From positions 1 to 64,000 of the IMG/VR virus record IMGVR_UViG_3300035661_000045: a stretch of DNA of 64,000 nucleotides; one strand, 5' to 3'. The notes below the pieces were generated by a model that saw nothing but the letters and a program-made list of their open reading frames with translations, was not told where the DNA came from and searched no databases. This document shows positions 7,731-11,822 of this stretch, piece after piece. The stretch comes from a virus. The number at the start of each line of letters is the position of its first letter. The first letter of the stretch is position 1. The position numbers and the translations under genes were made by a program.

Positions 7731-10119
7731 ATGGCTAATCAGCTATCAAAATTTGGGATGTTAGAATTCCAGTCCTTTAAAGGATTGTCTAAGGAAAACC
7801 ATCTTGGTGCAATGTATTCCCTCGCACCACAAAAAGCTACTGAAAAAATGGTTCAGTTGCTTGCAAATTATAGAGGTAAAACTCTTGAAGATTATTTAAA
7901 ACAATTTCCTATTAAGTATTTCGATGACGATAACGACTTCTACTGGCAGGTGATAGGCAGTTCACGTCGTAACATCGAATTAGTTGAAGCCCGTCATGAT
8001 GATGGCACTATCGTAGATAATTCTGAATTTGCCGGAGTAGCTGGCGTACCATTCTATTTGGTATTTGCAGAAGACTGGTTCGGTAAAGGTGAAGTAATCG
8101 TAGGAGAAAAAAATGAATTATATCAGATTCGTGTTCTTGCAGAACCACGGGCTGAAGGTTCAAACTGGGTTTACAAATGTGAAACAATGGGCGGACTTCT
8201 TGCTGGAATTCCTGCTTCTGAACTTTCTGCTGGTAAACGATTCTCATTTGAATTTGCTCCAGTTGAATCAAGTCGTTCTAAAGGTGTTGGTGCAGTTCGC
8301 TATACCACTCCTACTGCAATGCGTAATGAATGGACTACAATACGTTTAAAAGAACGTGTTCCTGGAAATATGCTTAACCGAAAATTAGCAGTTCCAATTA
8401 CCATGAAAGACTCCAACAATAAAAATGTTGAAAGTACAATGTGGATGCATTATGTAGAAATGAAAGTTGAAGAAACTTTCTCTGAATACAAATGTAATGC
8501 TATCATGTATGGTAAATCTAATCGTAACTCTAATGGTGAATATTTAAATTTTGGAGAATCTGGAGATGTAATTAAGACAGGTGATGGTATCCGTGCTCAG
8601 ATGGAAGTTGCTAATGTTCAGTACTATAATGACTTCGATATTAAATTACTAGAAGATGCATTACTTGAACTTTCTGCTTCTAAATTAGATTTGTATAATA
8701 AAGACGAACGTACATTTATTTTCAAAACAGGTGAACGTGGATTGGTTAAATTTAATAAAGCAGTTAAAGATATGGTATCTGGTTGGTATCCAGCCGGAAT
8801 GCTTACTTCGAGTGTAAATAATCCTGGTGTTATTAGCAAATCTGGAAGTAAAATTCATGATAATGCTTTATCTGCTGGATTCCAATTTACTGAATATAAA
8901 GCTCCAAATAACATAACGATTCGTGTTGAAAGCGATCCATTATATGATGATTTGGTTCGTAACAAAATTATGCACCCCGAAGGTGGTCCTGCAATGTCAT
9001 ATCGTTTCGATATTCTTTACATTGGAACTATGGATCAGCCTAATATTCAGATTGCTAAGATTAAAAACCAAGATGAGATGAGATCTTATCGTTGGGGAAT
9101 TAGAAATCCGTATACGGGAGCAATGGGTAACCCTAGACAATATTGGGGCCTAGCAGCGTAATCTGCTAGTAAACTTTTACCAATATCGGTGAAATTTTCG
9201 TGAGTATTATTTGATTATTCCAATTATTTTATTTACCTTTGTATAAATTTATAATATAAAGTAAAATGGAAGAATTTAGGAGTATAAAAGGATACGAAAG
9301 TTATTATGAAATATCTAACTTGGGTAATGTAAAAACATTATATAGTAGATATAAAAAATGTATATTTAAAAAGCCATTTGTAAGAAAAGATGGATATGTT
9401 GTTATAAATCTTGTGAAAGATAATAAGCAAACAACATTTTACTTACATAGATTAGTTGCTGATCATTTTATTTCACAAGATGGAGATATATTGAAATCAG
9501 AAGTTAATCACAAAGATGGTAATAAGCAAAACAATTCTGTGAGTAATTTAGAGTGGTGTACAGTTTCTGAAAATAAGAAACATGCATACAACACTGGATT
9601 GACTAAAATTGGTTCTAAGAGAACTTCAAGCAAACTAACAGAAGAAATTATTTATCAAATTCCACAATTAATTAAAGATGGAATTTCAATAATAAATATA
9701 GCAAAGAAATTTAATGTTTCAAAAACTGCAATCTATCACGTATTAACTGGTAGAAATTATGGATTTTTAAATATTGATTTTGGATATACATTTAAAAGTA
9801 ATAACAAAACAACACCGAGATAAGTCATAGATTAAAAATCTTTGACCATCGTAACGCATAGGAACTGAAACTACAGTTGTAGAATAAAATGTTCCCACGA
9901 GTGGTAAACACCCTACTGCAAATGGCAGGGGTGAAAATATATGCTAAACTTTAGCAATCGAAAAGCTAAAGAAGTAAGGGATAAAAAGCCTTTACGATAA
10001 TAAAATTGTATATGTCTTTTGAGGAAGATGAAGCAGAATTTCACCGCTTCACTCAACTTGGAGTGTTTATTTTGGACCCAACAAGAACAATGAGTATTAT
10101 CCCATCTATTTTGGGTTAA
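7731..10119 (+). CDS. major capsid protein, spliced: exon 1 7731-9134, exon 2 10009-10119 (504 aa)
   Basis: crAss-type MCP sequence. Joining the exons gives ...NPYTGAMGNP|YMSFEEDEAEFHRFTQLGVFILDPTRTMSIIPSILG, restoring the LDPTRT C-terminus typical of the family. Confidence 0.9.
9210..9241 (+). promoter_or_regulatory. Bacteroidota promoter for the intron HNH gene
   Basis: TTTG-N20-TACCTTTG, 24 nt upstream of the ATG at 9266. Confidence 0.7.
9266..9823 (+). CDS. intron-encoded NUMOD4-HNH homing endonuclease with C-terminal HTH
   Basis: YEISNLGNVK (NUMOD4), HRLVA, VNHKDGNKQNNSVSNLEW. Lies between the two P4 strands of the intron. Confidence 0.92.
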   Translation: MEEFRSIKGYESYYEISNLGNVKTLYSRYKKCIFKKPFVRKDGYVVINLVKDNKQTTFYLHRLVADHFISQDGDILKSEVNHKDGNKQNNSVSNLEWCTVSENKKHAYNTGLTKIGSKRTSSKLTEEIIYQIPQLIKDGISIINIAKKFNVSKTAIYHVLTGRNYGFLNIDFGYTFKSNNKTTPR

Positions 10120-10128
10120 TCAAAATAA

Positions 10129-10163
10129 AGTACATAGCGGAGAAATCTGCTATGTACTACTTT
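10129..10163 (+). terminator. intrinsic terminator/processing hairpin after MCP
   Basis: AGTACATAGCGGA-gaaa-TCTGCTATGTACT followed by a short ACTTT. Confidence 0.7.
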
Positions 10164-10174
10164 AATTAAAAAGA

Positions 10175-10193
10175 AATTTCTACTGTTGTAGAT
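10175..10193 (+). CRISPR. solitary type V-A (Cas12a) repeat handle; no array and no cas genes
   Basis: AATTTCTACTGTTGTAGAT is the canonical 19-nt Cas12a crRNA 5' handle (Francisella-type loop). Intergenic; only one copy seen. Confidence 0.75.
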
Positions 10194-10233
10194 TAGATAT
10201 TAAATAATTACATTAACAAAGGGAGAAGAATTA

Positions 10234-11121
10234 ATGGCAAAGAGTAATGAAGTCGAAGATGTGGAATTAGTTTCATGTCTACGCAATGAAAAAGTGGTGA
10301 TTAAATTTGCACCACGACCAAATAACAATATTACCGATCCTAAACATGAGGTTTATGGTGGAATGGCAAATGGCGCTGTAAGGATTTTTACAGTTCAGAT
10401 GCAAAGAAATTTTCAATTAACTAATCCATTGACAGATTCTGAGAAAGCATTCTTAGAAGAATATATGGGCATGGAAAAAAATGCATTATCAATTTATAAA
10501 AAAGTTGATAATTTTTGGCGTAATCAAAAAGTTATATTGAGTAAATCTAATACATATTTAGATTTATCAATTCCAGAAGATTACATTAAATACAAAATTT
10601 TACTTACAAATAAAGATTTAATTTGTCCATCATTAAAAGAATTTACAAATGCTCGTAAGGAAACTTATCAGTTCTATATGGTAAATGAAGATGAGGAGAT
10701 GAAGCAAAATAATACAAGCATGACATCTAAAATGGAAGCTATGCTTGAACTTGGAAAAATTCTTGAGAATAAACAACTACTTAAATTCGTTGTAGAGTCT
10801 ATTACCGGTCGTGGTCTTTCTAAAGCATCTAAGCTTGATATGATTCAATCAGAAGCATTTAAGATTGTTGAGGCTAATCCCAAGTCATTCTTAGGTGCTG
10901 TAAAAGACCCTAATTTAAAAACCAAGGTATTGTTATCAGAATGTGTAGAAAATGGTATTGTAGTCATTAGAAGTGGGTTATATTATACTCAAGATGGTCA
11001 ACCATTATGTGAAAACAATGAAGACTCTAACTTATCATTTGCAGTAAAATATTTAAATAGTCCAAAGCGACAAGAAGTTCGTATGACACTTGAAGCTAAA
11101 CTTAAATCTAAAAAAGAATAA
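10234..11121 (+). CDS. conserved crAss-like protein encoded after MCP, function unknown
   Basis: 295-aa intact ORF with VSCLRNEKV and YLDLSIPEDYIKYKILL, in the syntenic position. Confidence 0.6.
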   Translation: MAKSNEVEDVELVSCLRNEKVVIKFAPRPNNNITDPKHEVYGGMANGAVRIFTVQMQRNFQLTNPLTDSEKAFLEEYMGMEKNALSIYKKVDNFWRNQKVILSKSNTYLDLSIPEDYIKYKILLTNKDLICPSLKEFTNARKETYQFYMVNEDEEMKQNNTSMTSKMEAMLELGKILENKQLLKFVVESITGRGLSKASKLDMIQSEAFKIVEANPKSFLGAVKDPNLKTKVLLSECVENGIVVIRSGLYYTQDGQPLCENNEDSNLSFAVKYLNSPKRQEVRMTLEAKLKSKKE

Positions 11122-11126
11122 ATTAA

Positions 11127-11822
11127 ATGGCAAATAACATAGTAATTGATTCAACATGGGTCAGAGACAGATTCAATCTACAATATAATAATATATTCAG
11201 CAATCAAGCTCCTGGTCTTGTAGATTATGAAATTTCTATGTATTTGACTATGGCTCATATAGAAATAATTGATGAATATTCTGCTAACGTAGATTTATTT
11301 GAAAAAAATAGGGCTATACTTACATCATATTTAATAAATGATAAACTACCTGGGACTGTGGCCACTACTAAAGATAGGGGTATAGATTATCAAACATTTG
11401 AATTTACAGAAAATTATTGGAAGATAATGAAAGAGTATGCTATTACAGATTCGAATCCACAAGGCATTCCTATTAAGCCAATAACATATGATGGATTCAA
11501 TACAATGTCCGTTAATCCATATAAAAAACCTAATGGATTAAAAGGTTGGAGATTAGATATAAATGTAGATGACGATGACAAGAGAGATGTAAAGATACTA
11601 TTTAAAAAAATTAGTGATACTGATTATATTAAAATATATGATGTAGTGTATCTTGTAACTCCAAAATCATTTGATTTAGATAATGATTCAATTCCAAATA
11701 ATTTAGATGATAATCCATTTCTTGCAGAAAAAATCATAAATCGCGCTGTAGAATTGGCAACAAGAGACTATCGTGAAAACACATTACAATCACAAGTTCA
11801 GATAAATAAAAGGTCTGAATAA
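11127..11822 (+). CDS. tail ring protein
   Basis: YNNIFSNQAPGL..YEISMYLT.A N-terminus and EKIINRAVELA C-terminus, characteristic of crAss ring proteins. Confidence 0.65.
   Translation: MANNIVIDSTWVRDRFNLQYNNIFSNQAPGLVDYEISMYLTMAHIEIIDEYSANVDLFEKNRAILTSYLINDKLPGTVATTKDRGIDYQTFEFTENYWKIMKEYAITDSNPQGIPIKPITYDGFNTMSVNPYKKPNGLKGWRLDINVDDDDKRDVKILFKKISDTDYIKIYDVVYLVTPKSFDLDNDSIPNNLDDNPFLAEKIINRAVELATRDYRENTLQSQVQINKRSE

Follow-up and report, generated by a model that had tools for sequence, protein, structure and literature searches.

The leader of the gene behind the major capsid gene of an environmental crAss-like phage, which comes from microbial mats and is TGA-recoded, contains one exact copy of the Cas12a crRNA 5′ handle (AATTTCTACTGTTGTAGAT, positions 10175-10193, + strand). 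The handle arrived there as part of a recent insertion of 34 nt (10165-10198). The DNA analysed, hereafter the window, comprises the first 64,000 nucleotides of the IMG/VR virus record IMGVR_UViG_3300035661_000045, which is 78.7 kb long. Our preferred reading, to which we give a probability of about 0.45, is that the insertion is a recently captured fragment of a type V-A repeat, acting as a Racr-like RNA decoy and co-transcribed with the late genes. RNA decoys against CRISPR are already known from other phages. Of interest here are a dated insertion with natural controls and what appears to be a signature of capture across several phage families.

Cas12a recognizes the 19-nt handle and processes the RNA that carries it. 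The same 19-mer forms the 3′ end of the repeats in more than 120 bacterial and archaeal arrays with a periodicity of 62-66 nt among the genome matches listed, and the arrays whose repeats end in it include those of Flavobacteriales and Bacteroidales. One array (L118) adjoins cas2, cas1, cas4 and a gene for a protein with the RuvC_1 and NUC domains of Cas12a, and another (L139) adjoins cas2, cas1 and cas4. Judged by sequence identity, the motif is a genuine 3′ end of a type V-A repeat and the Cas12a handle. The initial annotation had made this identification, and it is borne out by the identity of the 19-mer with the repeat ends of Bacteroidota arrays beside cas12a-cas4-cas1-cas2. The accompanying statement that Cas12a occurs in Bacteroidota holds for this very handle, exact copies of which end the repeats of Flavobacteriales and Bacteroidales arrays beside cas genes.

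The handle was also described as solitary, with neither a second repeat nor a cas gene, and this description is correct. The 19-mer is single in the window even when up to three mismatches are allowed, it is present once in the whole 78.7-kb record, and a search of that record for the Cas12a RuvC domain detected none. Like the units sought by SRUFinder-type searches, it lies between genes of a mobile element that has no cas genes, and no other repeat stands within 100 bp. Its match to known repeats extends over 19 of about 36 nt only, below the full-match rule of SRUFinder, which requires that 90% or more of a known repeat be covered at an identity of 90% or higher (PMC10651486). An Rfam search of positions 9000-11500 with E values up to 10 returned neither CRISPR-DR nor any other credible family. 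The handle hairpin has a 5-bp stem (TCTAC/GTAGA) and a TGTT loop; in a fold of 10115-10260 it is part of the minimum-energy structure and absent from the centroid. As a side observation, an imperfect 15-nt palindrome of the ancestral gap (10152-10166 and 10199-10213) has the insertion at its centre; as RNA, the handle would thus cap a longer palindrome stem that competes with the 3′ arm of the terminator-like hairpin.

The gap between the capsid stop codon (TAA, 10117-10119) and the next start codon (ATG, 10234) measures 114 nt, as first described. From 5′ to 3′ on the + strand, the stop codon is followed by a terminator-like hairpin (10129-10158), CTTTA (10160-10164) with its Cas12a-type PAM TTTA, ATTAAAAAGA, the handle AATTTCTACTGTTGTAGAT, TAGAT, ATTAAATAATTACATTAACAAAGGGAGAAGAATTA and the ATG. 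The insertion, delimited by alignment against eight close relatives, consists of ATTAAAAAGA, the handle and TAGAT (10194-10198), the last being a tandem copy of the final five nucleotides of the handle. The ancestral leader of the next gene (10199-10233) follows and includes a Shine-Dalgarno sequence, GGGAG, at 10221-10225. The handle is separated from the Shine-Dalgarno sequence by 27 nt and from the ATG by 40 nt. The hairpin, rightly called strong in the initial annotation, has a 13-bp stem and a terminator-like score, and its pairing is kept among relatives through compensatory changes. No sigma-70-like promoter was found in the capsid-downstream gap or 3′ of this hairpin, and no terminator was found 3′ of the handle and the putative guide. 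The handle lies in sense within the late block of the + strand and behind the terminator-like hairpin. With that hairpin upstream and no promoter after it, the dosage of the handle should depend on read-through. The downstream gene (10234-11121, + strand) encodes a conserved 295-aa protein of the virion block with 67 related loci. Its relatives are annotated in crAss-like records as a dsDNA-binding-domain protein, and a PHROG comparison of the 295-aa protein gave no match.

The 67 related loci were retrieved with the 295-aa protein, and eight of them, with 93-95% protein identity and an alignable gap, served for the alignment. All eight lack the motif, and relative to them the window has 34 extra bases. 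It is likewise absent from about 57 more distant relatives, and no V-A-like hairpin was found in the loci, of about 6 kb each, of the 67 relatives. The motif is thus a recent insertion and not a conserved site, contrary to the conservation of the handle downstream of the capsid gene that the initial annotation had looked to. Since it is absent from every sampled relative, long-term selection on the motif is not shown. Because (A)ATTAAA stands on both flanks, the placement of the insertion is ambiguous by 6-7 nt. The inserted allele retains the handle intact (19/19). Contigs of four runs, from microbial mat and sediment in 2020 and possibly from one campaign, cover 10165-10198 with 0 differences, and no empty allele was seen there. 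The stretch was found only in DNA runs; RNA runs share less than 0.2 of its words.

In the insertion-free relatives, CTTTA is joined directly to ATTAAATAATTAC, so that TTTA immediately precedes what became the putative spacer. This junction of the T-run and ATTAAAT (alignment columns ~117-152, window ~10160-10200) is the most variable spot of the gap, the remaining leader being almost invariant. Four junction alleles occur among the eight relatives (CTTTA, CTTTTA, CTTTTAA and CTTTAGA), a diversity compatible with repeated escape at the PAM and seed.

The 24 bases after the handle, regarded at first as a pseudo-spacer, consist of TAGAT and 19 old leader bases of the phage (10199-10217). On this evidence no spacer was imported with the handle, because 10199-10217 is present in relatives without the insertion. 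A role of these bases as a guide is not supported, the ancestral part being common to insertion-free relatives and the first five bases being out of register: bases 1-5 mismatch the empty alleles of all eight relatives, the PAM position reads ACTA, and TAGAT displaces what lies downstream from the register of the empty allele. With TAGAT removed, the window would read TTTA, a 29-nt repeat piece and ATTAAATAATTAC, the same design as in the phage family described below as family B. It would then also have a feature of virus-borne mini-arrays that it now lacks, namely a spacer matching related viruses beside a PAM. The window fits the capture pattern set out below only if TAGAT is a later duplication. 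The handle followed by TAGAT also occurs in L022 and L162, which makes three independent solitary units with the window. Among 1345 post-handle sequences from the bacterial loci listed, it was found once, in the solitary unit L162, and in none of about 1300 true array units. TAGAT therefore seems to be enriched after solitary handles, and we offer no explanation for this recurrence. AAGAT takes this place in a capybara microvirus, and a partial duplication of 13 nt is present in L006.

Searches for a donor, a host and a target gave little. The 4-10 nt that precede the handle in the window (ATTAAAAAGA) were found in none of the 120 arrays listed and not in a metagenome scan. A metagenome scan for AAGA plus the handle, as expected of a donor repeat, recovered only L225, a coding occurrence in a capsid-like gene of an unrelated phage, and a scan for the handle, 0-10 nt and ATTAAATAATTACATT, which would reveal other carriers or a host spacer, gave 0 matches. 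The 1345 post-handle sequences, from 120 bacterial and archaeal loci listed, contained no true protospacer match to the phage genome and no match to any of the viral loci retrieved. Guidance to a host or competitor target, also proposed at first, found no PAM-flanked match beyond chance: a 10-nt seed match with a TTTV PAM occurred once in 3.3 Mb of retrieved loci, at chance level and in an implausible host. TTTV was not depleted in the phage genome (observed/expected 1.03).

The 19-mer is contained in 36 IMG/VR contigs, and its reversed (not complemented) control in 0. After removal of duplicates about 25 contexts remained: one true array (L002), one mini-array (L020), four to six occurrences in ORFs and about 19 solitary intergenic handles. 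Those in ORFs lie on either strand (1-2 sense vs 3-4 antisense). Intergenic solitary handles with co-directional neighbours on both sides are in sense in 11 of 11 cases, and in 16 of 17 when single-neighbour cases are included. This bias argues for selection as RNA, since a strand-neutral accident would place about half of the handles in sense. Two layouts recur. In one, which resembles a stand-alone small RNA gene, a terminator follows the handle at a distance of about 16-25 nt (L011, L032, a capybara microvirus and Leptospira LE1-like phages). In the other, represented by ten other families, unrelated genes such as portal, tape measure and Erf-like genes have the handle 0-26 nt ahead of their start codon. 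The element of the window is a member of this second layout, with 40 nt to the ATG.

In three other phage families the insertion could be placed against empty alleles. In family B (L226-L231) precisely one repeat of 36 nt, the same as that of an array in the Eubacteriales genome L207, stands between ...CTTTTTA and GGAGGTAGAACATGG, and about 28 relatives without the repeat read ...CTTTTTA followed directly by GGAGGTAAAACATGG. In L036, five bases and the handle stand before TACGGAGGTGAC, and a sibling has TTTT ahead of TACGGAGGTGAC. In the carrier L024, TA plus the handle takes the place of ATTGATATTTTTG of two siblings, whose portal protein is identical, and ATGGATAGC, which TTTG precedes in the siblings, comes next. 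The right junction in all three families thus joins the repeat end to a sequence that is flanked in the empty allele by TTTA, TTTT and TTTG, respectively. The left junction varies, with 36, 24 and 21 nt of the repeat retained and a 5′ part of 17, 5 and 2 nt, and the carriers have lost the PAM next to the post-handle sequence. An exact right join with an irregular left join is expected if a host array with a matching spacer donated the repeat, the homology being on the spacer side, and such junctions suggest a host array as the source and a former target as the site of capture. The handle and its flank also spell a crRNA that fits the empty allele and not the carrier. The argument from the PAM has as its base three families and the ambiguous window, and T-rich tracts are common before ribosome sites. 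Two of the six family B carriers have handle-breaking point changes (L229 lost a C; L231 reads GTAAAT), which suggest decay after capture and not maintained function. Four genomes of Eubacteriales/Clostridia that have repeats of the family B type were searched for the repeat-spacer junction of this family, and none had it. The insertions of L026 and L004 could not be placed, their relatives having diverged too far upstream, and a search for GenBank phage relatives of L016, L021 and L012 found none.

The initial annotation stated that solitary repeats of phages can act as RNA anti-CRISPRs, and this is established for type V-A, in which the solitary repeats RacrVA1-3 inhibit interference by MbCas12a (Camara-Wilpert et al. 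2023, PMC10651486). By analogy, the element of the window is most like RacrVA1-3 in its presumed working. Both are solitary repeat mimics in phage intergenic regions without cas genes, and competition for the effector is the presumed action. Unlike RacrVA1-3, the element is repeat-like only in the 19-nt handle (at most in 29 of about 36 nt), below the 90% coverage of SRUFinder; it has no promoter or terminator of its own and lies in an mRNA leader behind a terminator; and it is a dated, non-conserved insertion. RacrIC1, which is co-transcribed with the protein gene acrIC5 (PMC10651486), is similar in being a repeat mimic within a protein-coding transcript and not a stand-alone small RNA, as is predicted for the element of the window. 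It differs in being of type I-C and in lying 11 nt downstream of an anti-CRISPR gene, whereas the neighbours of the window element are the capsid gene and a conserved virion gene, with no acr recognized.

CracrVA1 is likewise a single V-A repeat-like unit in a phage, which is processed by Cas12a to the 19-nt handle and a guide (Liu et al., bioRxiv 10.1101/2024.10.29.618823). It has a dedicated guide with a PAM-proximal match of at least 10 nt to the cas12a promoter and then a terminator, whereas the "guide" of the window is the old leader of the phage, with no terminator after it and no target found. We therefore rejected the Cracr class, on account of the missing dedicated guide and terminator and of a target search over 3.3 Mb of retrieved loci, where a Cracr calls for 9-10 nt or more of PAM-proximal match to a cas or toxin promoter, that found nothing beyond chance. 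Virus-borne mini-CRISPR arrays, which take part in interviral conflict (PMC6858448; reviewed in PMC11656645), share with family B, L036 and L024 a host-type repeat with a flank that matches related viruses. They consist of two or more repeats and a spacer that was imported, in contrast to the one partial repeat here, and the "spacer" here is the carrier's own flank, which in the window is 5 nt out of register. This class was rejected because a single copy is present (up to three mismatches allowed). CreR and the stand-alone repeats beside cas12a (Shmakov et al., bioRxiv 10.1101/2023.03.03.530964) are solitary V-A units that are thought to load Cas12a in a non-immune role, as the window element may do. 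They are found on chromosomes, upstream of cas12a, and show conservation within clades, unlike the phage-borne, non-conserved element of the window.

If the element is a Racr-like decoy, the captured piece would be the 3′ 29 nt of a host V-A repeat-like sequence, including the whole 19-nt handle, followed by the 5-nt duplication TAGAT, and it would have inserted next to TTTA in the leader of the gene behind the capsid gene. Being in sense within the late unit and having no promoter of its own, the handle should be transcribed within the read-through or leader RNA. A host Cas12a with a matching handle would bind the hairpin, cut just 5′ of it at about 10174/10175, and remain loaded with an RNA in which the phage's own leader, without a PAM-flanked match, takes the place of a guide. 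Such a non-targeting decoy would compete with antiviral crRNAs. The insertion also parts TTTA from the sequence that it formerly flanked, which by itself would defeat a host spacer against the site. We count in favour of the decoy the identity of the handle, the 36 contigs versus 0, the 34-nt insertion, the sense bias, the ten families, the empty alleles and the precedents of RacrVA1-3 and RacrIC1. Against it we count that the motif is not conserved, that neither a donor nor a host spacer was found among the genome matches listed or in the metagenome scans, that the hairpin is weak and lies behind a terminator, that family B shows decay, that TTTV is not depleted and that TAGAT breaks the exact junction of repeat end and protospacer.

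The main rival of the decoy, which we rank second and consider rather unlikely, is a functionless scar: a repeat piece copied from a host array during spacer escape or in a recombination accident, which persists because it is recent. Absence from all relatives would be expected of such a scar, and so would the handle-breaking mutations in two of six family B carriers and a weak handle hairpin behind a terminator. The four alleles at the most variable spot of the gap are as expected of a targeted PAM and seed, and a position at the centre of an imperfect palindrome, flanked by 6-nt direct repeats, is typical of template-switch events. However, every informative intergenic handle is in sense, while a strand-neutral scar predicts otherwise, spacers of Cas12a being from either strand. 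The handle in the window is, moreover, still perfect (19/19), and point mutation is a far commoner escape route than import of a repeat. Resemblance by chance with no link to CRISPR is very unlikely and the least probable of the readings considered here. The composition-based expectation for the exact 19-mer is 3-4e-6 per window, lower than the approximately 1e-4 estimated at first. Multiplied by about 250,000 AT-rich windows, it gives roughly one exact 19-mer, so that this value alone cannot exclude chance. Nevertheless, the 19-mer at 10175 is not a chance occurrence: the 36 contigs stand against 0 for the reversed control, the motif arrived as a single, discrete block of 34 nt, the same 19-mer ends more than 120 V-A repeats, and in other phages equivalent sites contain complete repeats of 36 nt that match a bacterial array repeat exactly.

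Three further readings assign the element an active role other than that of a decoy. Quite unlikely, in our estimate, is that it is the footprint of a spacer-guided capture, in which an array with a spacer for the TTTA-flanked ATTAAATAATTAC donated its repeat end and the allele copied the repeat-spacer junction, giving a protein-free element for exclusion or homing. If so, the allele would be uncuttable since its PAM is displaced, and before TAGAT arose it would have encoded a crRNA that made host Cas12a cut insertion-free siblings. It would then be a protein-free element of 29-36 nt that uses a host nuclease, and the recurrent TAGAT would be a secondary and possibly selected change. The same design with an intact register is present in the three other phage families (family B, L036 and L024). 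We think it a little less probable still that the present RNA is a guide that turns host Cas12a on siblings without the insertion, for exclusion or homing, or that, like a Cracr, represses a host promoter. In family B, L036 and L024 the post-handle sequence equals the empty allele next to TTTA, TTTT and TTTG, and the PAM is lost in the carrier; CracrVA1 offers the precedent of a single V-A repeat with a guide; and the window without TAGAT, reading TTTA, the repeat piece and ATTAAAT, has the same design. This reading calls for a target allele of the form TTTV plus TAGATATTAAAT, whereas bases 1-5 mismatch every sampled empty allele, in which ACTA occupies the PAM position. No terminator follows the guide, and the sole 10-nt seed match with TTTV in 3.3 Mb is at chance level and in an implausible host. 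It is very unlikely that Cas12a binding or cleavage at the handle splits the leader from the capsid mRNA, or hides the ribosome site, and so tunes expression of the 295-aa protein. In the window 40 nt separate the handle from the ATG and 27 nt from the Shine-Dalgarno sequence, and in ten other families it lies 0-26 nt from the start codon, but capture at T-rich, PAM-like sites in short gaps would also place it close to ribosome sites. The genes downstream of such handles are mutually unrelated, relatives express the 295-aa gene without the element, and dependence of a virion gene on a host defence protein has no evident benefit.

If the decoy is active, RNA anti-CRISPRs would reach an environmental, TGA-recoded crAss-like phage, and a bare 19-nt handle inside an ordinary mRNA leader would suffice. 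Filters on repeat coverage, such as the 90% rule of SRUFinder, would miss elements of this kind. The pair of alleles with and without the 34 nt provides a natural control. Repeat ends that are fixed at a PAM-flanked sequence, with variable left joins, point to a testable origin of viral solitary repeats, namely capture from host arrays. Possibly, too, a single V-A repeat serves at the same time as a guide gene directed at sibling phages.

Several handles of the other contexts deserve description in their own right. The capybara microvirus Cap1_SP_161 (L284, MK496734.1), a single-stranded DNA phage of the Microviridae with a 5-kb genome, has at 2207-2230 an intergenic exact handle, followed by 18 nt and a strong terminator; by analogy, this unit is a small RNA gene in the style of Racr/Cracr. 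A Leptospira phage of the LE1-like group (L285, KF114879.1, locus 1130-1260) has an exact handle, 16 nt and a terminator, preceded by two copies of another repeat-like unit (CCCnACnCATGTGGGGTT...GAAAC), and two sister records contain the same 20-mer. To judge from these repeats, its transcript resembles a decoy for more than one CRISPR type. In L185, a Cardiobacteriales locus, three dispersed solitary handles (3861, 4241 and 5856) have an identical stretch of 27 nt behind them, which spans the beginning of a gene on the opposite strand, and small arrays with a related repeat adjoin. By analogy, these handles look like CreR-type regulators or a repeated element. A spacer of L185 matched the phage record at 75303-75322 (20/20) and was rejected as a protospacer match, since it is without a seed and lies in AT-rich gene-start sequence; the equality of 20 of the 27 nt with this stretch is probably an AT-rich chance match. 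In another phage group (L001, L010, L013, L018 and L225, 896-918) the exact 19-mer is in frame, encoding EISTVVD, within a capsid-like gene. The site is a 33-nt identical island amid synonymous differences between two diverged gene versions, and it may be chance coding or a handle kept in a highly expressed ORF.

The capsid gene of the window is itself split, in a gene model hidden by standard ORF calling. The capsid ORF (7731-9161) is broken at 9134/9135 by an 874-nt insertion (9135-10008) with an HNH endonuclease ORF (9266-9823). Its last exon (10009-10119, + strand) was recognized from a relative (L041) that joins window positions 9134 and 10009 and from the capsid annotation in a relative. 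An Rfam search of the capsid insertion made no intron call. The 3′ part of the insertion (~9811-10013) resembles sequence in many unrelated phages, like a mobile group I-type intron. The 874-nt insertion is missing in L041 and common to L046 and L043, and in other relatives (among L038-L046) insertions that differ from it stand at window positions ~7951-7971 and 8589. This makes the capsid gene a hot spot of mobile insertion.
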